The notes beneath the pieces are model-generated. The model did not search any database, was not told where the DNA came from, and worked only from the letters and a program-made list of their open reading frames with translations. The position numbers and the translations under genes are program-made. 64,000 bases of DNA from Leptonemataceae bacterium (GTDB lineage Bacteria > Spirochaetota > Leptospiria > Leptospirales > Leptonemataceae): contig OZ245742.1 of the NCBI GenBank assembly GCA_965227295.1, positions 32,001 to 96,000 of the forward strand. The letters run 5' to 3'. Below, piece by piece: positions 1-15,414 of the stretch (position 1 is its first letter; the number at the start of each line of letters is the position of its first letter).

Positions 1-68
1 TCGAATTCGGCTCGCAGTTAAATCAGGAACTTGTCGACGGCGGATTGGCGGTGCGGTACGATCTATAA
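1..68 (+). CDS. 3' end of a gene, probably thermonuclease (SNase-like) family
   Basis: Frame reads EFGSQLNQELVDGGLAVRYDL* (TAA 66-68), resembling the SNase C-terminal LNxELVxxGLA motif; truncated by window edge. Confidence 0.4.
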   Translation, partial: EFGSQLNQELVDGGLAVRYDL

Positions 69-93
69 TGTACTCTCAGATGATGTTTGTCCT

Positions 94-244
94 CGTGATC
101 GTCTTCCGTGATCGTCTTCCGTGATCGTCTTCCGTGATCGTCTTCCGTGATCGTCTTCCGTGATCGTCTTCCGTGATCGTCTTCCGTGATCGTCTTCCGT
201 GATCGTCTTCCGTGATCGTCTTCCGTGATCGTCTTCCGTGATCG
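94..244. repeat. Perfect tandem repeat, 13-bp unit CGTGATCGTCTTC x11 plus 8 nt
   Basis: Units start at 94,107,...,237 with no spacers. Confidence 0.97.
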
Positions 245-345
245 CGGGTTAGTCTCTCTTTATCTCAAGCTTGTACCGTTTCCTGATTCGGCCGTCCGTG
301 GTTCTCTTGCCGCTGATGATGTTCTTTGTCTCTCTTTCGTTCTTG

Positions 346-2329
346 GTCGCGGTAGAACGGCCGGTTGCCCGGCCGCCCCCGCACAGATCCCGGCGTGCGG
401 TATTCTCGCACCGGGCTCTTCGAAAGCACTCGCTTCCACATAAAGTCAATTCAGAGTAAGTCGCAACTGAGATACTGGTCGTTCCATGATGCGCGGTTTT
501 TCGATCCGGTAGTGCGCCATCAGATCCCTCAGCCCCTGCCAGTCCAGACTCCGGCGCTGACTGCGCCGATTGAGCCACTTGTACAGATTCATTTCCACCT
601 GATAGTAGAAGCTTCGTATACTCTTGTAGTTGCATTGGACGCCATAATAGTTATAGTATCCACGCAGCCGGGAGTTCAGAAGATTGAAGAACCTGCGCAT
701 GGGTAGATGCCGATTCGCTTTAATCCACTGCTTCACATTCTGGATCGACGCATGCAATCGCTTTGGAGCGGTGCGACGCGGAACCCACCAGAACCCCTTT
801 CGAGAACGAGCCCAGCGGTATTCAAAGCCTAGAAATACGAACGCCTCACGCCCGGTATTGAACTTCGCGCGGAAGCCCGGGCGCTCGAAACTTTTCACTC
901 CTGACTTTTCCGGCGCCAGTTCCAGACCAAACTTTCGCAAACGTTTTCCAAGCGTCGCATAGAATTTCAGCGCATCGTCTTTGGATTCAAAGGCGCAAAC
1001 AAAATCGTCCGCGTATCGACACATATAGGCCGGTCTCTTGCAGTGCTTCTTCACCACTTTCTCGAACCAGAGGTCCAGTACGTAATGAAGATAGACGTTC
1101 GCCAGAACCGGACTGATCACGCCGCCTTGAGGAGTCCCAGCGGTCGGGCGCGAGACCTGACCGTTTACCTCCAGCACGCCTGCTTTCAGCCACTTGCGAA
1201 TCAGACCGAGAAAGGCCCGATCATCGATTCGTTGCTCCAGCATTCGCATCAACCAATCATGGTCAATGTTGTCGAAGAAACCCTTGATGTCGGCTTCCAC
1301 AATCCAGCCGAGCTTCCCCGGACTCAAAGTTGAACTCAGAGTCTTCGAAGCCTCACGCGGACCGGTGTTCGGCCGATAACCATACGAACACGACAGGAAG
1401 TCTTGCTCATAGATCGCTTCAAGGATACGCGTCGCGCATGTTTGTACCAGTTTGTCTTCGAGGGCCGGCAATCCAAGCGGACGTTGTTTTCCGTCCGCTT
1501 TCGGGATAAAGACCCTGCGAATCAGTTTTGTTCGGTATCGTTTCTGTTTTAAGCGTTCCACCAGATCCCCGACATTTTCCGTAAGGTTCGCTTCGTAGTC
1601 GCGAAACGTTTCACGGTCCACGCCCGGAGCCGCCCGGCGATTCATTCCTGCGAACGAATCTTCGAGATTCATCTGGTTGAGCATCCCATACAGATTACGA
1701 AACAGATGTTTCTTACTCCTCCTCGCTTTATTTGCTATTGCCCGTAGTGAGGTTTGCATCAGTTGTTCCGATCCTGCCGTCCGGCTGATGTTGACTCTGC
1801 GAGCTGCGTACTTTCGTCAGCCCCTTCCCCGATCATCGCGCATCGCACGCGAAGACCGAACCCGTCGAAACTCCATTCGAGTTTCATTCGATTCTGTGGA
1901 CGGCTCTCCCGCCCTCTGAGTACTATGGGCTGATCCGACTCCCCGTTGATCATCATTCTTCCTTGTTCATTCGGTCAGAATTACCTTCGCTATCGTCGAA
2001 GGAACCAACGGGGTCTCCCGGGTTCCACGATGTTTCTCTGCATACATGCCGCGCTCAAGCGACCCCGACAGACCTCCAGAATCTCGCTAAAACGATTCCT
2101 TTGTGCTGGTTTCCATCTGACCAATGATGTCACCGTCTGCATCTATGGCATTTTACGAGGCTCAACAGCTTCCGGGAGTGTGGACTCCCCTACGGCCTGC
2201 ATGCTTCCCTGTGTACGCTTCGTGTGGCGGTTACCCGCTTCCACGCAACACTCGGTAGAAGTTGTTCGCTAAACTTTACTTCATATGGACTTTCACCTTA
2301 TCAGAAACATCGGGCTTTGCCCGGCGCAC
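346..2329 (-). mobile_element. Group II intron 1 (IEP without endonuclease domain)
   Basis: 5' GTGCG at 2329; domain V/VI (GAGCCCGGTGCG...CACGCCGGGATC...CTACCGCGAC) ending AC at 346; EBS1 UGGUCA loop (2118-2123) pairs with 5' exon UGGCCA. Confidence 0.92.
446..1759 (-). CDS. ltrA: Group II intron reverse transcriptase/maturase (RT+X, no HNH)
   Basis: APGVD, RPLGLP, SYGYRP, GTPQGG, YADD motifs; maturase X domain GYYNYY. Confidence 0.95.
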   Translation of the reverse strand: MQTSLRAIANKARRSKKHLFRNLYGMLNQMNLEDSFAGMNRRAAPGVDRETFRDYEANLTENVGDLVERLKQKRYRTKLIRRVFIPKADGKQRPLGLPALEDKLVQTCATRILEAIYEQDFLSCSYGYRPNTGPREASKTLSSTLSPGKLGWIVEADIKGFFDNIDHDWLMRMLEQRIDDRAFLGLIRKWLKAGVLEVNGQVSRPTAGTPQGGVISPVLANVYLHYVLDLWFEKVVKKHCKRPAYMCRYADDFVCAFESKDDALKFYATLGKRLRKFGLELAPEKSGVKSFERPGFRAKFNTGREAFVFLGFEYRWARSRKGFWWVPRRTAPKRLHASIQNVKQWIKANRHLPMRRFFNLLNSRLRGYYNYYGVQCNYKSIRSFYYQVEMNLYKWLNRRSQRRSLDWQGLRDLMAHYRIEKPRIMERPVSQLRLTLN

Positions 2330-2458
2330 TGGCCACACGCCCCACGCATTTGTGGCCACAAATCTCCACCGAGCCTTTTTGTGAATTTCTGCTGGACAGC
2401 TTCACTGTACGGCATCGACCCTCGTTTCATGTCCGCAGCCGCTCGAAATTCCGCGCAT

Positions 2459-3712
2459 ATCTCCGGTCTCGAATCCACACATAGCCGCCAGCCCGCGCGC
2501 GGCGGGCGCCGGTCCGCCGCGCGCGGGCTGGCGGCGACTGCTCCGCAACAATCGCAGCGGGGCGGCGAAATCGCGCGCGTTCTCGGGAGCCCCGCCCGTG
2601 AGACTCACGGCCGCGCCCAAACAACGCCCCCCAGGCGAGCGCCCGCTGCGAAAACAAGATTCAATGCGCGATTTCCACAGCTGAATCTGTTCCATTATAC
2701 GGCGCTCGCGCAGGATGTACTCGCGCGCACCTATCCGAGGTTCTGTTCGCACTGCGAAACGGAAATGCGCACGCCCGTGGCCGGGCGCGAGACCGCGGTG
2801 CGTTGCGCAACCTGTCATCACATGGGCTCGCGCACGGCGGGCACACCCTTGGACCACTTAAAGTTACCTCTTTGGACGTTTAGCTACGTCCTCGGCGAGG
2901 CCGTACAGACGTTCCCGCAGATGATCTCCGCGGCGCAGATTCAAAGACGGCTCGGGTGTTCGAAACAGGCTTCGCTCAATCTCAAACGGCGGTTGCAGTT
3001 GTTCCTCACGGACCTCGTGCCCGCCGTTCGCGAACTGGTGAAGCGCGACCTTGAAGATGCGTTTTCGGACCTGAAATTGCCTGAGAATCAGGACGTTTCG
3101 AAGTTCGTCGCGAACAAGCCCGTAGTCCACAGTGACACCCTCGCCTTATTCTCGGCAACGCAACGTTCGAACGGCGGTCGTGCGAGATGGAAGCACACCG
3201 GACAAACTGCGAGCATTTATCTCTCGGATAAGGTCGCGGAGCAACGCGGCAAGGTTCAGATCGGAACGCTCGCACATACCGTTGCGATTAAGAACGGACC
3301 GGTGTTACTCACGTCCGTTCGCGATCAAACGCAGAAGAGTCTGGAGCCGGCTTTTAACTTCCTACCCCGCAACACTGCGATAATGACAGACGAAGGCACG
3401 CCGTGGCTTTCGCGTTACTTCCCGAATCATCGCGCCGTGAATCACTCAGCGCGTGCGAAAGACAAACAGCGCAGCAAGTGGGCGCGGGATCGCTGGAGTC
3501 GCAACGGCGTGCACAACCAGGTCGCCGAAGGCAACCAGCGCATCGTTAAGATGTCTTTCCTGGCAGCTTACGGATACTTCGACCCGAAGCATTCGCAGTT
3601 GTATCTCAACGAATACTCCGCACTCAAGGCACTGAAGATCCACGGCCTCGATAGCCTGCTTTCTTTATCAAATGCGGCCGATGTGCGGAATGTAGACCAC
3701 AGATTGTTCTAG
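2459..3712 (+). mobile_element. IS1595-family (ISXO2-like) element, unit 1, type A leader; transposase start codon unclear
   Basis: CxxC..CxxC zinc ribbon, HTH (ISAAQIQRRLG), DDE motifs HSDT/MTDEG/VNHS/HNQVAEG/LYLNEY; imperfect TIRs ATCTCCGGTCTCGAATCCACAC ... GTGCGGAATGTAGACCACAGAT. Confidence 0.85.
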
Positions 3713-4975
3713 ATCTCCGGTCTCGAATCCGCACAGGCCCGCGAGCGCGCGCACCGAGGTTCTGTAACCTCGGCGCGCGCGCTCGCGGGGCGGGCCGTGT
3801 CAGACTCGCAGCGGTGCGGCGAAATCGCGCGCGTTCTCGGCGGCCCCGCCCGTGAGACTCACGGCCGCGCCCAAAAAACGCCCCCCGCTGGCCGCAAAAG
3901 AAAGGGACCGGCCAAGGACCTCCGGTCCTCGCGATTCCCGCATGTTAACGTTCCGTACTTAACGGAATTTACGCAGGACGTCCTTGCGCGGGCGTATCCG
4001 AAATTCTGTCCGCACTGCGAAACGCAAATGCAAACGCCCGTGGCCGGGCGCGAGACGGCCGTACGCTGCGGCGAGTGTCATTTCATGGGCTCGCGCACGG
4101 CGGGCACGCCTCTTGACCATTTCAAGTTGCCGCTGTGGACCTTCGGCTATCTTCTCGGCGAATCGGTCCAGTTGTTCCCGCTCATGATCTCCGCCGCACA
4201 GATTCGCCGGCGGCTCGGTGTATCTAAGAGCACATCGCTGTTACTTAAGCGGCGCCTGCAATTGTTCCTCACGGATCTGCTTCCGGCCGTCCGCGAGATG
4301 ATGCGCCGCGATCTGGAAACTTCCTGGAATTGCGAGAAATTGCCTGAAAATGGCGACGTTTCAGAAGTCGTTGCGAACAAGCCCGTGGTGCATTCGGACA
4401 CGCTCGCGTTGTTCTCTGCCACGCAACGAAGCAACGGTGGCCGCGCTCGTTGGAAGCACACGGGGCAGACTGCGAGCATCTATCTTTCGGACAAGGTCGC
4501 GGAAGAGCGTGGCAAGCTTCAAATCGGAACGCTTGCGCACACTGTTGCGCTAAAGAACGGGCCGGTGTTGTTTACGTCCGTGCGTGATCAGACGCAGAAG
4601 AGTTTGCAACAATCGTTCGACTTCGTTCCGAAGAACTCAGTGATCATGACGGATGATGGCACACCGTGGTTGTCGCGCTACTTTCGGAATCACCGTGCAA
4701 TCAACCACAGTGCGCGAGCGAAAGACGGCAAGCGGTGTAAGTGGGCGCGTGATCGGTGGTGCAAGGACGGCGTGCACAACCAGGTCGCCGAAGGAAACCA
4801 GCGCATCCTTAAGATGTCTTTTCTGGCAGCTTATGGTTACTTCACGCCGGAGTACTCGCAGTTGTATCTCAACGAATACGCCGGACTGAAAGCGCTCAAG
4901 GTTCACGGTCTCGATGAACTCATTTCACCCGCGAATCGGCCAGTTGTGGGGATTGTAGACCCCAGATTGTTCTAG
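3713..4975 (+). mobile_element. IS1595-family element, unit 2, type B leader; transposase ORF 3797..4975 (GTG start)
   Basis: Same motifs as unit 1 with diverged protein; TIR pair; abuts unit 1 through TGTTCTAG. Confidence 0.85.
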
Positions 4976-6228
4976 ATCTCCGGTCTACAATCCACACATA
5001 GCCGCCAGCCCGCGCGCGGCGGGCGCCGGTCCGCCGCGCGCGGGCTGGCGGCGACTGCTCCGCAACAATCGCAGGGGGGCGGCGAAATCGCGCGCGTTCT
5101 CGGCAGCCCCGCCCGTGAGACTCACGGCCGCGCCCAAAAAACGCCCCCCCGCCAGGACCCCGCTGCGAAAACTAAATTCAATGCGCGATTTCCTCAGCTA
5201 AACTTAGGCTACTATACCGGGCTCGCGCAGGATGTTCTGGCGCGGACGTATCCGAAGTTCTGCCCGCATTGCGAAACCGAGATGCGCACGCCGGTGGCCG
5301 GGCGCGAGACCGCGGTACGCTGCGAAACCTGTCACTACATGGGCTCGCGCACGGCGGGAACGCCGCTGGATCACTTAAAGTTACCTCTGTGGACATTTGC
5401 GTATATCCTCGGCGAGGCCGTGCAAACATTTCCGCAGATGATCTCGGCCGCGCAGATTAAGCGGCGGCTCGGTTGCTCGAAACAGGCGTCGTTGAACCTC
5501 AAGCGGCGGTTGCAGTTGTTCCTCACGGACCTGCTGCCGGCCGTGCGGGAACTCGTGAAGCACGAACTCGAAGATGCGTTTTCGGAACTGAAATTGCCTG
5601 AAAATCAGGACATTTCGAAGATCGTCGCGAATAAGCCCGTGGTGCACAGCGATACGCTCGCGTTGTTCTCCGCGACGCAGCGCAGTAACGGCGGTCGTGC
5701 AAGATGGAAGCACACGGGACAAACCGCATCGATCTATCTTTCGGACAAAGTCGCGGAGCAGCGGGGCAAGGTTCAGATCGGAACGCTTGCGCATACCGTC
5801 GCGCTTAAGAACGGGCCGGTGTTACTTACGTCCGTTCGCGACCAAACACAGAAAAGTCTAAGCCGTCTTTTAACTTCATGCCGCGCTACACTGCGATTAT
5901 GACGGACGAAGGCACGCCGTGGCTCTCGCGCTACTTTCCGAACCACCGCGCGGTAAATCACAGCGCGCGGGCGAAAGACAAACAACGCAGCAAGTGGGCG
6001 CGGGATCGCTGGTGTAAGAACGGCGTGCACAATCAGGTCGCCGAAGGAAATCAGCGGATCGTTAAGATGAGTTTTCTCGCAGCTTACGGCTACTTTGACC
6101 CGAGGCACTCGCAGTTGTATCTCAACGAATACTCGACGCTCAAAGCACTGAAGATTCACGGCCTTGATTCTTTAGTTTCTTTAGCAAATGCGTCTGGTGT
6201 GCGGAATGTAGACCACAGATTGTACTAG
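4976..6228 (+). mobile_element. IS1595-family element, unit 3, type A leader; transposase frameshifted near 5860
   Basis: ORFs 5282..5902 and 5878..6228 are the two halves; AGTCTAAGCCG versus AGTCTGGAGCCG in unit 1 is a 1-nt deletion. Confidence 0.85.
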
Positions 6229-6290
6229 CAGGCTGCTGAAAAAGTCGAAATTTCCTGGCGATTTCGCGGTGCCTGTTCAAATTCTGTCGC

Positions 6291-7379
6291 ATGCGCGGCG
6301 AAGAGGAAAAGCAACCGAGTATCTGGAGTCACGTTTCGATGGAGGACCGGATTCCGGCAAACCATCCGTTGCGTGACATTCGCAAGCTGACGGATGCGGT
6401 CCTCGCGAAACTGAGCGATCGATTCGATGAAATGTATCCGGCCTTCGGTCGCCCATCGATTCCGCCAGAGTATTTGTTGCGCGCGCTTTTGCTGCAAGTG
6501 CTGTTCAGTGTACGCAGCGAACGTCAGTTGATGGAGCAAACGAACTACAATCTGCTCTATCGCTGGTTCATCGGGTTGAGCGCCGACGATCCCGTCTGGG
6601 ATGCGAGCGTCTTTTCAAAGAATCGTGATCGTCTGATGGAAGGCGGTATCGCCGACGAATTCTTTCGTGGCGTGCTGGAAGTGGCGGATGATCGCGGGCT
6701 GATCAGCGAAGAACATTTCACCGTGGATGCCACGTTGCTGGAGGCTGCGGCGAGCCTGAAGAGCTTCCAGAAAAAAGACGGTCGGCAATCCCCCTCGGAT
6801 GATGATCCGGGCAATCCGTTCGTGAGCTTTCACGGCGAAAAGCGCCGCAACGATACACATGAATCCACGACCGATCCAGATGCGAAGCTATTCCGCAAAG
6901 GCAACGGCAAAGAGGCCCGGCTGGTTTACATAGGGCATGTCCTTATGGAAAACCGTAACTGCCTCGCTGTGATGGCCGGCGTGACTCGCGCAACCGGAAC
7001 GGCGGAACGCGATGCGGCAGCCATCTTCATGAAGGAACTACGCCGAAGCAATCATCGGCCCCGCGTAACTCTGGGCGCCGACAAAGGCTACGATGCTAAA
7101 GCATTCGTAGAAGAACTTAAAGCGATCCGAATCGTGCCGCATATCGCGCAGAAGAGCCGGTCCAGTGCCGTCGATTATCGAACGGCCCGCAGCCCCGCCT
7201 ATGCCGTAAGTCAACGTCGACGCAAAGCCGTCGAAGAAATTTTCGGCTGGCTGAAGTCGGTCGGCCTGTGCAGGAAGATGCGCTTCCGCGGCCCGGATCG
7301 CGTTGGGTGGATCTTCCGCTTCGCTGTTGCCGTCTACAACTTGCTGCGAATCAGAAACCTGGAAGAGGGTACCGCATGA
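6291..7379 (+). CDS. IS5-family DDE transposase (DUF772 + DDE_Tnp_1)
   Basis: GRPSIPPE, RSERQL, VDATL, TDPDA, GADKGYD, VEEIFGWLK motifs. Confidence 0.93.
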   Translation: MRGEEEKQPSIWSHVSMEDRIPANHPLRDIRKLTDAVLAKLSDRFDEMYPAFGRPSIPPEYLLRALLLQVLFSVRSERQLMEQTNYNLLYRWFIGLSADDPVWDASVFSKNRDRLMEGGIADEFFRGVLEVADDRGLISEEHFTVDATLLEAAASLKSFQKKDGRQSPSDDDPGNPFVSFHGEKRRNDTHESTTDPDAKLFRKGNGKEARLVYIGHVLMENRNCLAVMAGVTRATGTAERDAAAIFMKELRRSNHRPRVTLGADKGYDAKAFVEELKAIRIVPHIAQKSRSSAVDYRTARSPAYAVSQRRRKAVEEIFGWLKSVGLCRKMRFRGPDRVGWIFRFAVAVYNLLRIRNLEEGTA

Positions 7380-7406
7380 TCGCAAATGCTAACTTGCGCA
7401 ATACAA

Positions 7407-7589
7407 GCGTTAGGGATGCGCAGGGGGCCGCGCAGCGGCAGTCCGGAGCGCGAAGCGCGGAGGACCGAAGCGAACGCAGAGCCCGGAGCAGCCCGGCGCC
7501 CGGCCGGCTTCAGAGGGGAAGGAGCGAACAGCGGCCCCGTCCAGCGGGGCCTTGTTGGCGCCGGCCGGGCGCAACGCCCAAATGAATTT
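7407..7589 (+). repeat. REP/MITE-like structured repeat, copy 1 (inside the IS5 element)
   Basis: GCGTTAGGGATGCG...CAGTCCGGAGCGCGAAGCGCG..GGACCG.AGCGAA...ACGCCCAAA.GAATT, shared with 10589-10726 and 63119-63240. Confidence 0.75.
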
Positions 7590-7631
7590 CACAGATTCCG
7601 CTTTCGAATGACTTTTTCAGCAGCCTGCTAG

Positions 7632-8062
7632 ATCTCCGGTCTCGAATCCGCACAGGCCCGCGAGCGCGCGCACCGAGGTTCTGTAACCTCGGCGCGCGCG
7701 CTCGCGGCAGGGGCCGTGTCAGACTCGCAGCGGGGCGGCGAAATCGCGCGCGTTCTCGGCGACCCCGCCCTTGAAAATCACGGCCGCGGCCCTCTTTCGC
7801 CCCCCTGCAACACACCCCCGGCCAAACTGCGATTCAATGCGCGATTTCCTCAGCTGAATTTGTTCTATTATAACGCGCTCGCGCAGGATGTTCTCGCGCG
7901 GGCGTATCCGAAGTTCTGTCCGCACTGTGAAACGGAGATGCGCACGCCGGTGGCCGGGCGCGAGACCGCGGTGCGGTGTGGTGAGTGTCACTTCATGGCG
8001 TCGCGCACGGCGGGCACGCCGCTGGATCACTTAAAGTTACCTCTGTGGACGTTTGCGTATGT
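7632..8062 (+). pseudogene. IS1595-family element, unit 4, type B leader, truncated after the zinc ribbon
   Basis: Leader nearly identical to unit 2; ORF from 7716 matches units 1-3 up to LWTFAYV, then similarity stops. Confidence 0.85.
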
Positions 8063-8065
8063 TGT

Positions 8066-10410
8066 GTCGAGTAGGGTCAGCCCGTCACCGGGCCAACCCC
8101 CTCTAAGAACCGTACGTGCGAGTTTCCCCGCATACGGCTCAAGCAGTTCCCGCCTTACGATTCGCATGAATCTGCTGATGGCAGAAGAGATGTACAAGTT
8201 GAAGATTCAGGATGTGGCGTTCACCACCCTGCGAGAGCGGAACCTTGTGATGGATGTGCAGCTTTTCGCCGTTCTCCAGATCCGCGGCACAGAGCGGGCA
8301 AAGACCTTTCTGAATCATTGCGAGGGTACGATGATAGGGACGATCCATTTCCTTCACGGCCTTCAGGCGACGTTTTTCCCAGTATGATCTCAAATCGGGA
8401 TCATCGGGCGAAGCGTCACCACGCACCATAATGTGCGGTCGTTTTTTCACCCACGAGAGTTTTCTCAGTAAACGGAGTTTCCCTCGCGATGGATCAACGG
8501 TCGCGAACACCCAATGGTCAGAGCGTTCCGGATGGTGTCTTCCCCAATAGCGGGCTTTGGTCCAGCGTTTTCCCTTGTTGGAGTGTCGTCGGCGAGCCCA
8601 ACGCCAGAGGCGATGCCAGCAGAAGTGATCGACGCGTGCGAACACCTTGCTTGACGCACAGTGACGATAGTAATTTGCCCAGCCAATGAGCACGGGATTC
8701 AAAGCGTCGATCAGGGCGAGTTGGGGCGCGCCCTGGTATTGCCTGACAAGATCGCGAACGCGATCTCGCAGGCGACGCTCGTTGTCCCGGGAGGGACGAA
8801 TGAGAAGTTTCCGACCTTCGCGTGGATTGCGAAACATGGGATTCTTCGTCATTCGTTTCGTTCCCGATGCTTCCACCTGTTGGAGATGGAAACCCAGGAA
8901 TTCGAAACCGTCGCTGGCGTGAACAATCCGGGTTTTAGATTCCGATAATCGCAACCCGCGCCTGGAAAGCCAGTTCCCGAGCAACGGCAGTAACGCTTCC
9001 GCTTCGCTACGTGATCGGCAGAAGACCAGAAAGTCATCGGCGTAACGCACGAAGCGGTTGTTCGGAACGAACTCCTGCATACCATCGAGGGCGATATTGG
9101 CGAGCAAAGGAGAGATAACTCCCCCCTGAGGAGTACCGGATTCAGAATCCGAGAACACTTCGTTCTCAACCACTCCCGCCTTGAGCCATTGTTTGATCAG
9201 CTCGTATGCGGGGAATCGGTGAAGTTTGCGAAGCAGGAATTCATGGGAGATGCGGTCAAAGGCGCTTTCAATGTCGGCGTCAATGACCCACGGTGTGCGC
9301 GATGCTCCGCAGACCTGACGGAAGATCGTTTCGATAGCATCGTGAGCACTCCGGCCCGGACGAAATCCGTAGGATCGAGACTCGAATCGAGCTTCCCATT
9401 GAGGTTCCAACGCGTTTTTGACCATGGCCTGCATGGCCCGGTCCTGAATCGTTGGAATTCCCAGGGGTCTTTGTTTGCCGTTCGCTTTCGGGATGTAGAT
9501 TCTTCGTACCGGGGACGCCTTCCAGGGCTCGTGCAGAGCCAGGAAGTCAACCAGCTTTCCCCTCGCGGCCGGTGTCTTCAGGACGAGACCATCGACACCC
9601 GGCGTGAACTTGCCACGATTCTTCTGCGTCACCTGCCGCACGGCAAGCAGCCGATTGGAAAAGCTCCGCAGCATCAGTTTCTGCAGGGAGCGTACTTTGC
9701 GCACGTTGCCCTGTCTTTCGGCTCTGAATATTCGTTGCCGCAGACGACGTACTTCTTTCATGGCCCTCTGCCAGTCGACAGAGTTCCAGTCCGTAGCGGA
9801 CGCGTAATTCTCATCGCACGATGGTACGATGCCAGTCTCCGCATTTTCCTGAGTCGTCATTGCAAGTGTATTCAGTGAACTACCCTGTCGAAGTGGGCAC
9901 CCTTTCGAGTTGATCAAAAGATCTATTCGGCCGGTTATGATTTCCCGTTGCCTTTCGGCTGCCGACGTTCGCTTATTCGACAATCCCATACCCGCTGAGG
10001 AGTCCGGCCTTGTTTACACTCAGCTTGCCGGACATCGGTCCGGACCCCAACGGGCTTACCACGTTCCGCAGGTTGAAGATACGACGGGACAGGCACCCAA
10101 TATACCCCGGCGGCTGAGGTGGCTGCACCCGTGTGGTAGTATCACGGGTTCTCCTGTGCCGCGTTTCCTGGCATTCACCTCTGATCCAGGCGGTTTTTTA
10201 CGAAGGCTTACTCGGGTTCACTTACGTTTGCCATACCGTCTTTTCCGGTTGCCGGATCCAATGGAGGTTCATCGCGTCCGTTGCAACATCCCGGCAGCTT
10301 CGCACAGTCCGTTACCGTTCTGCGCGTGCCGGGCGGAAATGGAGCCAGCCACAGGCTCATCAGGTCAGTGTTCCACCTCCTGAACTTCTTCCAGCGACTT
10401 CGTGTCGCAC
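8066..10410 (-). mobile_element. Group II intron 2 (IIB, chloroplast-like class, with HNH endonuclease)
   Basis: 5' GTGCGACACGAAGTCGCTGGAAGAAG at 10410; DV GAGCCGTATGCGGGGAAACTCGCACGTACGGTTC; ends CTACTCGAC at 8066; EBS1 10135-10140 and EBS2 ~10191-10198 match the 5' exon. Confidence 0.93.
8139..9860 (-). CDS. ltrA: Group II intron RT/maturase/HNH endonuclease
   Basis: N-terminal W..VDW..VRRLRQRIFRA, TPGVDG, GTPQGG, YADD, GWANYY, C-terminal CPLC..HH..NLQLVHLFCH; start at MTTQEN (alternative 9989). Confidence 0.95.
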   Translation of the reverse strand: MTTQENAETGIVPSCDENYASATDWNSVDWQRAMKEVRRLRQRIFRAERQGNVRKVRSLQKLMLRSFSNRLLAVRQVTQKNRGKFTPGVDGLVLKTPAARGKLVDFLALHEPWKASPVRRIYIPKANGKQRPLGIPTIQDRAMQAMVKNALEPQWEARFESRSYGFRPGRSAHDAIETIFRQVCGASRTPWVIDADIESAFDRISHEFLLRKLHRFPAYELIKQWLKAGVVENEVFSDSESGTPQGGVISPLLANIALDGMQEFVPNNRFVRYADDFLVFCRSRSEAEALLPLLGNWLSRRGLRLSESKTRIVHASDGFEFLGFHLQQVEASGTKRMTKNPMFRNPREGRKLLIRPSRDNERRLRDRVRDLVRQYQGAPQLALIDALNPVLIGWANYYRHCASSKVFARVDHFCWHRLWRWARRRHSNKGKRWTKARYWGRHHPERSDHWVFATVDPSRGKLRLLRKLSWVKKRPHIMVRGDASPDDPDLRSYWEKRRLKAVKEMDRPYHRTLAMIQKGLCPLCAADLENGEKLHIHHKVPLSQGGERHILNLQLVHLFCHQQIHANRKAGTA

Positions 10411-10588
10411 ACTCCCGAAAAACCGATCTCATGCAACCTCCCGCCATTCAAAACGATGATGCAGCCCTCGCACACGCGGAATGGCAACGACTTTCGCGGA
10501 GGGCGACGGCCGGGAACGTGTCGCAGGTCATAATTACGAGTCCCTCAATATCCTCTCCGGGTATCAACAGTAACTTCCCGAACAACCA

Positions 10589-10726
10589 GCGTTAGTGATG
10601 CGAAGGGTGGCGCGCAGCGCCAGTCCGGAGCGCGAAGCGCGTAGGACCGCAGCGAAGCGGAGCCCGCAGCAGCACGACGGCCCGCCGCCTCCACGGCGCG
10701 GCGGGCCGGAACGCCCAAAAGAATTC
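10589..10726 (+). repeat. REP/MITE-like structured repeat, copy 2
   Basis: High similarity to 7407-7589; terminal hairpin GGCCCGCCGC..GCGGCGGGCC. Confidence 0.75.
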
Positions 10727-10764
10727 CCAACTCCTGAGAGAATTCCTTAGGTTTACCCACGGGA

Positions 10765-11200
10765 GTGTTAGGAACGATGCTCGCGGCGATTGAGCAACAT
10801 GACGCGCATAAGCGGGATGCGAACTACAAGCTCGGTCGCGATTTGGTGAACAACTTCGGCACACCGTTCGGCGTGTTCGCCGATTACATTCCCGGCGTGG
10901 ATCGTTTTACCGATCTGATGGGCGATAAGGTCGGTCGCCTGTTCGCGCGCAATCCGATGATTCCGCAGTTGCTGATGCCGGTGGCGTATGGTTCGTATCA
11001 CGGCGGCACACGTGGGGCGGTGATGTCCGGTGTCGGGCTCGCGGCGACGGTGGCGAGTCGTTTTTTCAGCGCGGGCACAGTCGGCGTGAACGCCGGCTAT
11101 TCGTTTCAGGATGGTTACAGCGGCGGCGTGACGGTCGGCTTCGGTGAAGGTGATGTGAACTCAGACGTGGGCCTGAATTACAGTGAGGTCGAGGCGGGAC
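10765..11200 (+). pseudogene. Fragment resembling an internal Gly-rich segment of a large secreted/polymorphic-toxin-like spirochaete protein
   Basis: GVNAGYSFQDGYSGGVTVGFG...VGLNYSE; composition changes abruptly afterwards; family assignment from memory only. Confidence 0.3.
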
Positions 11201-11277
11201 CTGATGTCGGGGGCAGCTCACCGCCAGTACACAAAAAAAACAACTTCCACAGAACAGGTCACATCTCCCAATGGGAC

Positions 11278-11793
11278 ATGCACATCGTCCGCTCCATCTT
11301 GACATCCGGATGCCTGACCTTACTCTCCGCAGTCGCTCTTCTCACATCCTGCATATACCTGACCCAAAGCTACAACGCAAGCGGACTGGAAGAGGACATG
11401 GAGCGACTGCTTGTACACACGGCCGGGTTGTCACCGCGCGACTTTGACTGCAAAATGATCGGAGCGTCGCGCGCGGGACTGTGCTTATTTCCATTGAACA
11501 GCACTGAGTTCGATGATCTCGCAAACCGCTTTGCACTGATCGCTCCGCCGGCTATCGAAAATCGCTACTTTGAAACCTGGGTGAACGCCGGTCACCCGGA
11601 ACCCGGCACAACGCGCGCCACGACGGAGCGCGGCTGCCGCTATCAATCCGGATTCGAGAACGCGCGGGTCGTGTTTACGCCCGAACCGAGAAAAGGCCCC
11701 ATCCGCGAACACATCCACTTCGAGTACTTCCTGCTCTTCCGAAACGCGACCACCGGCCAGGCCTGCGCACAAACATCTTACTCCTACGGATGA
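11278..11793 (+). CDS. Hypothetical exported/lipoprotein
   Basis: ATG at 11278, signal peptide with LLTSC lipobox; C-terminal part of ORF 10765..11793. Confidence 0.55.
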   Translation: MHIVRSILTSGCLTLLSAVALLTSCIYLTQSYNASGLEEDMERLLVHTAGLSPRDFDCKMIGASRAGLCLFPLNSTEFDDLANRFALIAPPAIENRYFETWVNAGHPEPGTTRATTERGCRYQSGFENARVVFTPEPRKGPIREHIHFEYFLLFRNATTGQACAQTSYSYG

Positions 11794-11869
11794 GCCGGCG
11801 ACCAACAACGCAACGGCGCCTGCGGAGGATTGACGATTTCCGCCAGACTCATTACGTTACTGCATCACC

Positions 11870-12709
11870 ATGACCACGCCCCTCAAAGACACCACCACGC
11901 TCATCACCGGCATCACGGACGCCGGCTCCCTGGCCATGACCATCGCGAAGCAGGTCCTCGCCGAGGGCGGCAACATCATCTGCTCCGGCCTGGGACGCAC
12001 CGCGCATCATAGCGGGCTTTCCGACCGCGCCGCGGACTTTCTCGATACAACCTACGCCGCGTTCGAAGAAACGGTGCGGCAGGAACTCGGCGCCGACGTT
12101 CCGGCGTTCGCCCTGGACGTAACGCTGGACGGGAGCATCGAGGACTTCTGCAAAGCATTGCAGCAACGAAACATCACGCTCAACGGTTTGCTGCACAGCA
12201 TCGCCATGGATAAGACCATCAAAGCCGGCGTCGTCATCAAGTCCATCCTCGACGTAACGAAAGAAGAATTCTTCGGCGCCATGGACGTGTCCGCGTATTC
12301 CTTAGTTTCACTTACGCGAGGATTAGTGCACTCAAACATTTTGCAGAAGAATTCTTCGATCCTGGCGTTGAGTTACCTCGGCGCGGAAAAGGTCGCCTAT
12401 CATCCTTACAAAAACATCGGCGTGGCGAAGGCGGCGCTGGAACGCATCGTCGTGGAGCTGGCCCATGAACTCGGAATATCGCATCACATCAAAGTGAACG
12501 CCATTCGCTTTTCCCCGTACACGGGCAGCAAGGCGGGCAGCGCCATCCAGGGTCTCGCCGAGGCCGTAGAGTTTTGCGATCGCAACAGTCCGCTCGGAAA
12601 CGCGTTACCGGAGGACCTCGCCTACGAAGCCGCATATCTGTTGCGGCCCTACGGCCGCGTCACCGGAGAGATTCGCAACGTCGACGGCGGCTATCATATT
12701 CGCGGCTGA
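11870..12709 (+). CDS. fabI: Enoyl-ACP reductase (SDR)
   Basis: LITGI..SLA..IA, LLHSIA, SAYSL, YKNIGVAK (Yx6K), VDGG. Confidence 0.85.
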   Translation: MTTPLKDTTTLITGITDAGSLAMTIAKQVLAEGGNIICSGLGRTAHHSGLSDRAADFLDTTYAAFEETVRQELGADVPAFALDVTLDGSIEDFCKALQQRNITLNGLLHSIAMDKTIKAGVVIKSILDVTKEEFFGAMDVSAYSLVSLTRGLVHSNILQKNSSILALSYLGAEKVAYHPYKNIGVAKAALERIVVELAHELGISHHIKVNAIRFSPYTGSKAGSAIQGLAEAVEFCDRNSPLGNALPEDLAYEAAYLLRPYGRVTGEIRNVDGGYHIRG

Positions 12710-12729: not shown

Positions 12730-13263
12730 CTACAGACCCTCCGCCGCACTGCCGCCACGAAGCCGCCCGGCCCCAATCCAGCCGAACTCTCGCTCATCGT
12801 TCACAAAACCGGCGAACTCAAACGCGTCCGTCGACAAACCCTCGCTCAACGTAAGTTTACCCCGCACGCCCGCCCCCATGCGATACAGCACAATCGAGGG
12901 CGAGTCCTGCCAGGTCAGCGTATAATGAAAGGCGTCCACGATCACGTCGTCCCGCAGTTTCAGCGCGAGCAAATGCCGCACCGGCCGCCGGCCTTCCGAG
13001 GTGTCTCCCGTCGTGTCCGCGTAGTAACGACGCACGGTAAAGTCCCCCGGCACCGTCTTGAGGTTGCCGACCGGGTAGCCCTTCGCGCCGTCGAAGGTCG
13101 GCACCGGCGGCGGCGCGCCGTCAATCTCGCGCAACCAATCGTAACCAAAATCGGCGCGCGGCTCTGCCTGCACGAGGCGATACACGAGACCGGCCGCCTC
13201 CGGCTGCGCACCGGGCGAACACAAAGCAAAACCGAACAGAATCAGAACAATACTACGTTTCAT
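12730..13263 (-). CDS. Hypothetical exported protein
   Basis: ORF with N-terminal signal peptide, fills the gap. Confidence 0.6.
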   Translation of the reverse strand: MKRSIVLILFGFALCSPGAQPEAAGLVYRLVQAEPRADFGYDWLREIDGAPPPVPTFDGAKGYPVGNLKTVPGDFTVRRYYADTTGDTSEGRRPVRHLLALKLRDDVIVDAFHYTLTWQDSPSIVLYRMGAGVRGKLTLSEGLSTDAFEFAGFVNDEREFGWIGAGRLRGGSAAEGL

Positions 13264-13434
13264 AAACCATGATCCTCGCCGCTACCTTGCCGACAACATC
13301 CTTTAAGAGCTTGCGCATCGCGTCGCGTCGCGAGACAGGATGATAGACGATGGCCTACAACCGCTGGTTCGTCGAGAAAAATAAATGAAGCCACAAAAAC
13401 TTGACCGGCGACACGTGCGCATACACAACAGTGT

Positions 13435-14448
13435 ATGCCCCGTCCCCCACGCATCGCCGTAATCATCGCCACCCTCCTGCTCATTAGCGCATCATCTTTC
13501 GCGCAAACTACCGATCTCGAAGCCGGCCTGCGCTATCGCACGTACGCCTCCGGCAGCGCGGACGAACCGTACCAGGAGTCCCCGCTCGGCGAAAACGTAC
13601 AGGAGTATGCGCCCCTCTTAGAACTATCCAACGCGCTCGTGCAGCAGGTCATTAACGGCGACTACGGAAAGATGTACGATCAACACTTCTCACCGCGCCT
13701 CAAAGAAGAAATGTCCCGCGAATGGTTGGTCGGCCGACTCAGCGAACTCACGGCCTTCGCCGGGCCGGCCCGGAAGTACAAACCGAAGCAATGGCGCTTC
13801 TCGTTGCGCAAACACCAGGGCCGCCGCATCCTGCTGAGCACGAAGATCGTCGAACACCAACGCACGAAAATCGTCTACCAGCTAACCGTATTTCCGAAAG
13901 ACTTAAAGCGCATCGTCGGCTTTCAGTTCACGCCGCTGGAAGGCGACACCCGGCCGCAACTGCGCGCCGCCTTTCATTCCCGGGACGTCGCCGCCCCGGG
14001 CATAGAACACGGCCAGTTTCCCCCGCCGGACGAGGAGACCGCGCAGGCATACGCGGGGCTTCTGAAACTCGCCAATACCATTCTCGAACTCCGCCGGAAA
14101 CAGGATCACGCCGCCGTCTACGAACGACACTTCTCAGCGCTCGCGAAACTCCTTGTCAGCCGCGGCGAGTACGAAGGCCAGGCCGCCCAGCTTACGAACC
14201 TGGCGGGGCCCATCCAACGCTTCGACCCCGCCGAATGGCACCTGGAAATCTTCGAATACCTGGGCCGGGAGGCCGCCATCCTCACGAAGACCGTGGAACA
14301 CGAACACGGCATCGTCCTCCATCGCTTCCACGTTTTCCCGGAAGATCCCACGAAGCTCGTCGGGATCCAGACGATTCCGCGCGAACTGCGGCCGCGGGCC
14401 CCGGAGTATTTCTTCGAAAAAGACGGTGAGATGGTTCCGGTAGATTAG
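13435..14448 (+). CDS. Hypothetical exported protein with two homologous ~120-aa domains
   Basis: Signal peptide; internal repeat LL(E/K)L(S/A)N..Y..HFS..AGP..W..TK.VEH..VFP.D....VG.Q. Confidence 0.7.
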   Translation: MPRPPRIAVIIATLLLISASSFAQTTDLEAGLRYRTYASGSADEPYQESPLGENVQEYAPLLELSNALVQQVINGDYGKMYDQHFSPRLKEEMSREWLVGRLSELTAFAGPARKYKPKQWRFSLRKHQGRRILLSTKIVEHQRTKIVYQLTVFPKDLKRIVGFQFTPLEGDTRPQLRAAFHSRDVAAPGIEHGQFPPPDEETAQAYAGLLKLANTILELRRKQDHAAVYERHFSALAKLLVSRGEYEGQAAQLTNLAGPIQRFDPAEWHLEIFEYLGREAAILTKTVEHEHGIVLHRFHVFPEDPTKLVGIQTIPRELRPRAPEYFFEKDGEMVPVD

Positions 14449-14469
14449 TAACACAACAGACTCGCTTCC

Positions 14470-15414
14470 ATGCCCGACTTCCAGCACAGCCTCACCGAAA
14501 TTTACGAACGCTACCGCGGCGAAACCGGCGGCCGCGTCGCCACGTACATTCCGCAACTCGCGGAGGTCGATCCGAACCTCTACGCCGTCAGCGCGGTAAC
14601 ATGCGATGGGCGCACCTTTAGCATCGGAGACAGCGACGCCCGTTTCACCATCCAGTCCACATCAAAGCCGTTCAGCTATGCCCTCGCCCTGGAACATTAC
14701 GGCGAAGAGTACGTCCTTGCCCGCGTCGGCGTAGAACCCACCGGCGAGGACTACCATTCCATCACGAAGCTGGACCAAATGCAACGGCCCATGAATCCCA
14801 TGGTGAACAGCGGCGCCCTCGCCGTATGCAGCCTGCTCACGGCCGCGGGTGTAAGTATCGACGACGTCATCGCCCGCTACAGTGCCGCCGCCGGCGAGAG
14901 CGTTCGCGTCGATCAGGCAACCTACGCATCCGAAATGGGCACCACCGACGGCAACCGCGCCATCGTCTACCTGCTGCGCAAGTTCAACGTTCTCGCCGCC
15001 GACCCACTGGATACCCTGGAGCTCTACGTTAAGATCTGTTCCCTGCAAACTACGGCGAAGGGCCTGGCAACCATGGGCGCGACCCTGGCGAACGGCGGGC
15101 GGAATCCGCGGACCGGTAGCACCGCCCTGCCGCCGGAGCACGTCCGCGACGTGCTCAGCGTAATGCTCACGTGCGGCATGTACAACTATGCCGGCCAGTG
15201 GGTTTACGACGTCGGCGTTCCGGCGAAGAGCGGCGTCTCGGGCGCGGTGCTGATGATCGTACCGTCGGTCATGGCCGTGTGCGTGTATTCGCCGCGCCTG
15301 GACGAACGCGGCACGTCCGTGCGCGGCATCGCAACGTGCAAAGACATCTCCGCGCGCCACCGTCTGCATCTGCTGCACCCGGCGTGCCCTAAAGATCCAG
15401 GCGCCGTCACTTAG
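14470..15414 (+). CDS. glsA: Glutaminase A
   Basis: VATYIPQLA, FTIQSTSK, NPMVNSGA, CGMY, PAKSGVSG. Confidence 0.95.
   Translation: MPDFQHSLTEIYERYRGETGGRVATYIPQLAEVDPNLYAVSAVTCDGRTFSIGDSDARFTIQSTSKPFSYALALEHYGEEYVLARVGVEPTGEDYHSITKLDQMQRPMNPMVNSGALAVCSLLTAAGVSIDDVIARYSAAAGESVRVDQATYASEMGTTDGNRAIVYLLRKFNVLAADPLDTLELYVKICSLQTTAKGLATMGATLANGGRNPRTGSTALPPEHVRDVLSVMLTCGMYNYAGQWVYDVGVPAKSGVSGAVLMIVPSVMAVCVYSPRLDERGTSVRGIATCKDISARHRLHLLHPACPKDPGAVT

Follow-up and report, generated by a model that had tools for sequence, protein, structure and literature searches.

A long GC-rich hairpin just inside the left end of tandem IS1595-like transposase units in a Leptonemataceae genome, and its possible role as an insulator

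The 64,000-nt stretch of DNA analyzed here (contig OZ245742.1 of assembly GCA_965227295.1, positions 32,001 to 96,000, from a Leptonemataceae bacterium; hereafter, the window) carries near its left end an array of IS1595-like transposase units arranged head to tail and parted by 8-nt spacers (TGTTCTAG twice, TGTACTAG once), and ordinary chromosomal genes follow beyond 10 kb. Just inside the left terminal inverted repeat of each unit lies a 52-nt hairpin with a stem of 22–24 bp that is almost all G+C, which comes in two forms within the array (types A and B) and is the subject of this work. The units, hairpins, and spacers are as follows (window coordinates; IRL and IRR denote the left and right terminal inverted repeats, and ORF an open reading frame):

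2459–3704, plus strand: unit 1, a 1246-bp IS1595-like element, with IRL 2459–2481, hairpin A, a small palindrome at 2596–2610, the transposase core from 2663, and IRR 3682–3704
2484–2535, no strand assigned: hairpin type A, 22 perfect pairs
3705–3712, plus strand: spacer TGTTCTAG, a target copy, containing the TAG that closes the ORF of the upstream unit
3713–4967, plus strand: unit 2, of 1255 bp; hairpin B occupies 3738–3789, and a GTG lies at 3797
3738–3789, no strand assigned: hairpin type B, 24-nt arms, one A·C mismatch
4968–4975, plus strand: spacer TGTTCTAG, separating unit 2 from unit 3 and flanked by the two arms of inverted repeat I5 (IRR of unit 2, IRL of unit 3)
4976–6220, plus strand: unit 3, frameshifted (ORFs 5282–5902 and 5878–6228), with hairpin A at 5001–5052
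6221–6228, plus strand: spacer TGTACTAG, the third junction
7632–8060, plus strand: unit 4, truncated by a group II intron, with hairpin B at 7657–7708

In hairpin A, the two arms (2484–2505 and 2514–2535) pair perfectly around an 8-nt center, and in hairpin B the 24-nt arms enclose a 4-nt loop and contain the single A·C mismatch. Folded as RNA, the two have energies of −63.0 kcal mol–1 (z-score −8.7) and −51.5 kcal mol–1 (z-score −9.9), respectively, with 0 of 200 shuffled sequences as stable in either case; with DNA parameters, the corresponding values are −40.2 and −34.9 kcal mol–1. Both hairpins are 52 nt long and begin 25 nt past the left tips of their units (2459 and 3713), that is, 2 nt inward of the 23-bp left terminal repeat. 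These coordinates, the common size, the offset, and the stem lengths are as proposed in the initial annotation of the window. That annotation also had the hairpins recurring in units 3 and 4, which they do: the copy of A in unit 3 is identical to that of unit 1, and the copy of B in unit 4 has its outermost pair broken, although unit 4 starts at 7632 rather than at 7630 as then given. The small palindrome, CCGTGAG-A-CTCACGG, follows the hairpin as described, being intact in units 1–3 and degenerate in unit 4, with one mismatch in a copy of the third type (C) introduced below.

When the whole 5.94-Mb genome was scanned for perfect hairpins (stem of at least 16, loop of 3–10), 15 distinct hairpins were obtained, 4 of which are copies of hairpin A. 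Furthermore, all 11 main-type unit left ends in the genome carry a hairpin at position +25 (four of type A, two of type B, and five of type C), and the seven that lie outside the array of the window have hairpins of type A or C. The hairpin is specific to these units, beyond chance. The link to the transposase units drawn in the initial annotation thus holds for every main-type left end, and the generic genome-wide palindrome named there as the alternative does not describe this hairpin, which only unit left ends bear. A distant tandem pair of units in the same genome (5032330–5034962, minus strand, locus L036; ∼67% amino acid identity) is without the 52-nt hairpin; the pair lies where an MBOAT-family gene ends in its stop codon, and its spacer (AGTTTTAG) repeats the 8 nt that border the pair on the left.

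Upon alignment of types A and B, stem positions 1, 6, 10, 18, and 20 are changed on both partners, exactly the five compensated positions first reported, and position 16 is the mismatch of B. The third variant, type C, which occurs elsewhere in the genome, is equivalent to B with the mismatch repaired and two G·T pairs added. Over the four distinct alleles, the 24 pairs, counted as RNA, comprise 15 that are invariant, 7 with two-sided changes, 1 with a one-sided change (G·U), and 1 that is unpaired in two rows, so that 96.9% of the cells in the allele alignment pair, a value reached by 0 of 500 shuffles. Every double change is borne by the single A row, and thus by one split, and the five A/B swaps are all G-C to C-G or C-G to A-T exchanges, with transversions on both sides and no wobble (G·U) intermediate. 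Because all-transversion swaps fall on a single split, we favor arm-to-arm templating as their source: as far as the alleles can tell, the pattern would fit one-step replacement rather than gradual RNA covariation. Such events have been described for quasi-palindromes, imperfect repeats that are perfected in one step by template switching, with one arm copied from the other (according to the available text of PMC7202029). The present case resembles them in its all-transversion double changes and its single A versus B/C split; however, quasi-palindrome correction is a mutational mechanism and not a function, and it leaves the conservation between copies unexplained. The mismatches themselves are without strand bias, since the A·C of type B would pair only on the minus strand and the two G·T of type C only on the plus strand. 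As a strand test, the tally among the window alleles (2 G·T against 1 A·C type, with the A·C in two rows) is uninformative, as is that among the stems of Leptospira-type relatives discussed below (4 G·T against 3 A·C and 13 other mismatches, from gapless alignments).

The IRL and the hairpin together form the best-conserved 77 nt of the units. Units 1 and 3 have hairpins that are 100% identical in bodies of 83–87% identity, units 2 and 4 have hairpins of 98% identity in bodies of 74%, and unit 2 and type C have hairpins of 92% identity in bodies of 71–77%, for which the binomial tails, i.e., the probabilities of so few differences in 52 nt given the divergence of the bodies, are 2 × 10–4, 3 × 10–6, and 1 × 10–3, respectively. 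The hairpins of unit 1 and type C, in contrast, are only 62% identical in bodies of 87–91% identity, and overall the hairpin blocks fall into two haplotypes (A versus B/C) that are decoupled from the phylogeny of the units. Conservation of the block reflects either selection on it or short-patch conversion between units. The structural selection proposed in the initial annotation, as a cis-regulatory RNA or a noncoding RNA, stands to the extent that the hairpin is real, linked to the units, and conserved between them; its other support, RNA covariation, is thin.

Outside this genome, the picture is one of shorter or different structures. In two other genomes of the genus, the left repeat is followed at once by a short, 7-bp stem (GCCGCGA-18 nt-TCGCGGC), whose base corresponds by homology to that of hairpins A, B, and C; same-genus relatives also have other palindromic insertions near that site (L051, L001:2267). 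In more distant clades, hairpins are either missing or different and differently placed. Judged from these comparisons, the long hairpin would be a lineage-specific expansion of a short GC-rich stem. The wider alignment that had been put forward as a check on covariation therefore does not extend the case, as the long hairpin is absent from the same-genus relatives, with their 7-bp stem, and from the distant pair. A metagenome scan for closer relatives returned one locus, with its left end missing. Reads of three public DNA runs assembled across the repeats only as fragmented contigs; one of these, from a different study, spans 2459–2583 and has its listed differences outside the hairpin, and we give it no weight as evidence. 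Minimum free energy folds of the whole GC-rich leaders (the segments ahead of the transposase core) were unstable, with copies not comparable to each other.

These observations bear directly on whether the hairpin needs a function at all. It could be a neutral by-product of a mutational hot spot inside the left repeat, where quasi-palindromes are perfected by template switching and spread by conversion or recombination within the array. That there are only two haplotype blocks, decoupled from the unit phylogeny, that all of the swaps are transversion swaps, that congeneric genomes have different palindromic insertions in this region, that most of the family lacks the long hairpin, and that the mismatch types show no strand bias would all be expected on this account. 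Self-templating, however, keeps arms complementary and not copies alike, whereas the hairpins are 92–100% identical across units that have diverged by 13–29%; moreover, although long perfect palindromes tend to be unstable in bacterial genomes, 11 copies persist, including those in the decayed units 3 and 4. We thus regard a purely neutral origin as a serious candidate, although an unlikely one. Whatever its role, the hairpin offers a clear example from nature of a long palindrome whose sequence is replaced while its pairing stays perfect.

By their sequence, the units are a divergent IS1595-like clade. The Pfam profile DDE_Tnp_IS1595 matches units 1 and 2 with 39 and 35 bits, respectively, against a cutoff of 27, over profile positions 49–148 of 153 only, and the NCBIfam profile transpos_IS1595 (NF033547) gives 22.1 and 20.3 bits, below its threshold of 75. 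The N-terminal zinc ribbon Zn_Tnp_IS1595 has no Pfam match at E ≤ 0.01, and direct reading gives CSHC, 17 residues, and CATC(HH). Within the core, we take VVHSDT, IMTDEGT, and VAEGNQRIVK, picked by eye, to be candidates for the catalytic D, D, and E (or N/H), with K/R seven residues on. The terminal inverted repeats are 23 bp long (IRL, ATCTCCGGTCTACAATCCACACA; reverse complement of IRR, ATCTGTGGTCTACATTCCGCACA) and the target is 8 nt, and an 8-bp target duplication is also given for IS1595-family elements in the available text of PMC12561309. Taking the Pfam match, the repeats, and the target together, the IS1595 label used in the initial annotation is acceptable, although the clade is divergent.

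The frame of the transposase cannot be described without the DNA to the left of unit 1, which, together with the remaining features of the array, is as follows:

94–244, plus strand: 13-nt tandem array, 11.6 perfect copies of CGTGATCGTCTTC, upstream of the conserved left flank X
250–2458 (250–344 and 2347–2458), plus strand: conserved left flank X, split by a group II intron and uninterrupted at four other sites in the genome
345–2346, minus strand: group II intron, reverse transcriptase/maturase ORF 446–1759, its ends defined by three other copies in the genome
6229–7627, plus strand: IS5-like element (DUF772 and DDE_Tnp_1 transposase, 6291–7379), inserted in the 8-nt spacer, with CTAG duplicated at 6225–6228 and 7628–7631
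about 8066–10380, minus strand: second group II intron, with reverse transcriptase, maturase, and HNH domains (ORF 8139–9989), truncating unit 4 at ∼8060

No stop codon interrupts the transposase frame between the two tips of the unit; its ATG comes from X and its TAG stop from the 8-nt target. Ahead of unit 1, the in-frame ATG (2429–2431) lies in X, 10 codons before the left tip and at −234 relative to the transposase core. X precedes the first unit of an array and is conserved from this genome to Leptospira-type genomes; it ends in ..G(C/T)GCAT, with an in-frame ATG 5–11 codons before the left tip, and its junction with the unit (..GCGCAT/ATCTCC, the slash marking the tip) is conserved across the order. 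The units of the window share one frame, parted only by the TAG of the spacer (1254 = 418 × 3; 1263 = 421 × 3), and the last unit of an array reads in frame through the right repeat into a conserved C-terminal extension, Y, giving a frame of ∼620 amino acids (e.g., L035:2815–4377). Y (∼190 amino acids) has no Pfam or NCBIfam match, and the long form aligns in one piece (residues 5–476 of 520) to a record from Leptospira interrogans. This is an unusual setting for an insertion sequence, with a tip-to-tip frame, a borrowed ATG and stop, and insertion at the stop codon of one host gene.

In Leptospira-type relatives, the leader is open for at least 180 nt in the transposase frame in 20 of 22 cases, compared with 6 of 22 and 1 of 22 for the remaining two frames; for the window's own GC-rich genus, in which the transposase frame is open in 20 of 20 and the others in 17 of 20 and 9 of 20, the same count is uninformative. 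The leader also encodes a conserved peptide motif, FLR(N/K)VLG (EIARVLG in the window), and in the core of this motif the third codon positions are the most variable (entropy 0.99, against 0.71 and 0.69). Since the transposase frame is open there and X supplies an in-frame ATG, what the initial annotation called a leader may not be noncoding at all but an N-terminal coding region, at least in the first units. Units of type B have a GTG 7 nt after the hairpin (3787–3799 and 7706–7718), and the G-run that precedes it overlaps the last bases of the stem; the same arrangement, a GTG 7 nt past the hairpin and beside a G-run, is found in the B/C-type units, whereas the leaders of type A units contain no ATG, GTG, or TTG anywhere. 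We also considered recoding, with the in-frame TAG and the hairpin acting as in SECIS or PYLIS systems, and rejected it, since the frame is shared between units only in this genome: the units of a same-genus relative are 1243, 1284, and 1245 bp long, and those of Leptospira-type genomes are out of frame.

The intron at 345–2346 is without an endonuclease domain and lies on the opposite strand, 83 nt upstream of the ATG of X and outside the element that carries the hairpin; its three other copies in the genome are 98–99.95% identical to it. It probably separates unit 1 from its promoter. Homing of a group II intron to the hairpin was rejected as an explanation, as the intron sits 112 nt upstream, in X, with its ends set by the other copies. 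In the same-genus relative L002 (∼2010–2160), a different 13-nt array occupies the place equivalent to that of the tandem array at 94–244, and both are iteron-like.

Taking this architecture into account, we tentatively regard the hairpin as a subterminal palindrome of the DNA whose arms are kept matched by arm-to-arm templating and which would shield each unit from transcription or translation coming in from its left, and we hold this reading with somewhat less than even confidence. The palindrome would be in the first place a DNA-level entity, an expanded form of the short GC-rich stem of the relatives, whose arms would stay complementary through quasi-palindrome correction by template switching and not through stepwise RNA covariation. 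A transcript arriving from the left, be it from a host gene, from X with its promoter and ATG, or from a preceding unit, would then form an extremely stable stem-loop ∼30 nt past the upstream stop codon (itself part of the 8-nt target copy); this stem-loop could cap the upstream message and hinder polymerase or ribosome from entering the next transposase frame. In B/C units, occlusion of a start site is also conceivable, given the GTG 7 nt after the stem and beside the G-run; type A units have no such start. The hairpin, with its specificity, place, perfection, and conservation between units, and the architecture of the units are features of the DNA as read, and that it acts as RNA, and to what effect, is what we infer.

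The closest precedent is IS200, for which the available text of PMC3196728 describes a first left-end stem-loop that terminates impinging transcripts and a second that occludes the ribosome-binding site. As in IS200 of Salmonella, a stable stem-loop lies here just inside the left end and upstream of the transposase core. However, the transposase of IS200 is of the HUH/Y1 type and the element is without terminal repeats, whereas the present units are DDE elements, IS1595-like, with 23-bp repeats, and, also unlike IS200, the stem in the window is 22–24 bp of nearly pure G+C without a T tail and lies in an open frame. A second comparison is provided by the fold-back inhibition of IS10 and IS50, in which the pairing involves the extreme end of the element, and thus occurs only in transcripts started outside it, and in which the partner is the ribosome-binding region. 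The left-end inverted repeat of the Leptospira-type relatives is similar in that it includes flank DNA, with up to 25 nt from outside the unit, and because it spans outside DNA it would, as RNA, form only in transcripts from outside. Here, in contrast to IS10 and IS50, there is no start codon at the 3′ arm, and the hairpin of the window is local and does not pair the end with the start site. Finally, REP-type palindromes are GC-rich hairpins that follow stop codons and can stabilize upstream messages; the present hairpin differs from them in not being dispersed, as it is found inside units only. The hairpin would, on its own, add an IS1595-like member to the insertion sequences with structure-forming left ends, such as IS200 and IS10/IS50. 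Literature searches on IS1595 with Leptospira, and on IS1595 with stem-loop and transposase, found no such feature.

A number of observations weigh against the insulator reading. A simple terminator scan gave 6 terminator-like sites (8.2 expected), none of them at the four hairpins, and no T-run follows the stem on either strand; a promoter scan likewise gave nothing at the hairpins. Short-patch gene conversion in the tandem units, and not selection, could account for the conservation between units, and the IRL and hairpin haplotypes are mosaic. The 7-bp stem of the relatives carries G·T pairs or mismatches in several copies, and the long hairpin is confined to the A/B/C units of this genome, with the distant pair at L036 lacking it, so that its role is dispensable for the family. 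Furthermore, if the ATG of X is a real start, the hairpin lies within the coding path of the first unit.

The same data can also be read in terms of DNA recognition, with the palindrome either bound as a duplex by a symmetric dimer (through the helix-turn-helix of the transposase or, in the long form, the C-terminal domain), or extruded into a cruciform or hairpin by which the left end would be marked for synapsis, for cleavage, or for resolving the cointegrate-like modules. A fixed offset 2 nt from the left terminal repeat, the conservation of the IRL and hairpin above all else in the unit, and the lack of strand bias are consistent with such a role, and symmetric changes of half-sites are expected of a dimer-bound palindrome as well. 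Nevertheless, the right end has no counterpart, 52 bp far exceeds the usual operators, the hairpin allele does not covary with the adjoining transposase body, and relatives transpose without the hairpin, as the target duplications and empty sites of the Leptospira-type genomes indicate, and we consider recognition of this kind improbable.

A different left-end repeat is present in the Leptospira-type relatives, where 12 of 21 unique leaders contain, ∼110 nt inside the unit, a segment that is the reverse complement of 7–25 nt of flank (including the 8-bp target) plus nucleotides 1–14 of the left repeat (loci L010, L013, L016, L017, L019, L022, L025, L041, L042, L045, L046, and L015:2519–2694). 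The resulting stems reach 40 bp with 1–2 mismatches; the other 9 of the 21, mostly X-flanked first units, have no flank bases in the stem. The match is locus-specific, with own-locus scores of 27–50 against a background of mostly 8–16, and the segment covaries between orthologous sites of differing sequence (L013, L025). The host bases that it matches are native, as seen in empty sites, and the segment is found also in units away from the flank (L043, at a right border, and L015:2721, a second unit), where it matches the host site better than its own neighbors. No match to the right flank was above shuffles. An RNAalifold consensus of the 21 leaders is weak (8 pairs, −5.18 kcal mol–1, with a covariation term of −0.29 and 2 covarying pairs), and its covarying hairpin overlaps the peptide motif FLR(N/K)VLG; the 52-nt hairpin of the window has no counterpart there. 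An invertible switch was rejected as an explanation of this repeat, as all 21 leaders align in a single orientation.

The segment may be a guide or splint for site-specific insertion, or it may be a palindrome that has grown across the border by templating and was then converted between units. It is this segment that could prove new in kind, in that an element of one clade carries an internal, inversely oriented copy of the host sequence beside its insertion site. The bridge RNA of IS110 is described as an element-internal sequence complementary to both target and element end, and only the Leptospira-type relatives resemble it in having an internal segment that matches target and element end. 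IS110 differs, however, in having a DEDD recombinase, as opposed to DDE, and a two-loop noncoding RNA in a noncoding end, whereas the segment here is one contiguous stretch that matches the target together with the left flank and the left end, is situated in an open frame, and is absent from the units of the window.

Extending the comparison to the window, the hairpin could be the scaffold of an element-encoded noncoding or guide RNA, similar to the IS110 bridge RNAs or to omega RNAs. The locus-specific complementarity in 12 of 21 Leptospira-type leaders, present also in units off the flank, and the native state of the matched host bases argue for it. Yet among the 23 unique leaders of the window's own genus, none is complementary to flank, target, or left repeat above shuffles; the arms of the hairpin match only each other, not target or flank, which weakens the interpretation given in the initial annotation. 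A search of positions 1–12000 against Rfam at E ≤ 1 gave 6 matches, all of them parts of group II introns and none at the hairpins, and both the weak RNAalifold consensus and the open transposase frame likewise count against a guide RNA, which for the hairpin of the window we consider very unlikely. A broader form of the idea, in which the left-end repeats (the 52-nt hairpin and the flank-matching segments alike) would be a nucleic-acid recognition system of a DDE transposase, the segment guiding or splinting insertion at the single site of each subfamily and the hairpin being a scaffold or degenerate form, seems to us doubtful at best. If true, it would be RNA- or single-stranded-DNA-guided targeting outside the IS110, IS200/IS605, and CRISPR-associated transposon systems, and a segment that directs targeting would open a new route to programmable DDE transposition; if not, the segments would be a striking growth of a palindrome across a transposon–host boundary.

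The setting in which the units occur is broader than the array. The IS1595-like family was found in 91 of 156 Leptospirales genomes, where it builds islands of directly repeated modules of 37–82 kb. Two Leptospira-type genomes contain islands, 37 and 76 kb long, with directly oriented units at both borders; the left border consists of the end of a host gene and TTGTAG(T/A)T followed by the IRL, and the right border of the IRR, the same 8-mer, and host DNA. An 8-bp duplication thus surrounds the whole island (TTGTAGTT in genome G076, L042/L043; TTGTAGAT in G066, L010/L038), and the site is the stop codon of a gene for a SpoIIE-type phosphatase. Of 12 further related loci, the 10 that were inspected comprise 4 empty sites with a single 8-mer (L060, L061, L064, L068), 3 degenerate remnants, and 3 that are unclear. 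Within a module, the left unit is fused to Y and has no X, and the right unit has X. In the genome of the window, three modules in succession each have a left and a right unit that are 100% identical (5896423 and 5924296; 5925550 and 8754; 10008 and 34459), and the island begins where the coding sequence of a host gene stops (..IYFVF*), whose last 8 nt (genome position 5896415) are TGTTCTAG; the right border is lost.

Identical direct copies around cargo with one target duplication, the mark of a pseudo-compound transposon or cointegrate-like structure, are thus present. The simplest reading would be a circular X–unit–Y element inserted repeatedly, in a cointegrate-like manner, at one 8-bp target, in which case the tandem units would be module junctions and resolved modules, and the window the old, decayed end of such an island. 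ISApl4/Tn7560, of the IS1595 family, has 8-bp direct repeats, terminal inverted repeats, direct copies around cargo, and a circular intermediate (PMC12561309, available text), and the present islands are similar in being bounded by identical direct units with an 8-bp duplication. ISApl4 differs in being 712 bp long, in preferring A/T-rich sites, and in that no hairpin is described in that same text; the units here are 1246 bp long, insert site-specifically at the 3′ end of one host gene, have a frame that is open over their whole length, and fall below the NCBIfam cutoff for IS1595.

Two smaller observations concern these modules. Outside the window, around the ends of the single contig (genome 5896415–5909425 and 5925542 to the contig end), a 13-kb stretch recurs at 100% identity and an 8.4-kb stretch at 99.7%, which reflects either very recent duplications of modules or an assembly effect in a repeat-rich island. 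Beside the gene of the long form, at L035:5571–7001 (genome ∼13070–14500), lies an AAA_15 ATPase with an OLD/Gabija-like N-terminus, which suggests, by domain content, that the cargo of the modules includes defense genes.

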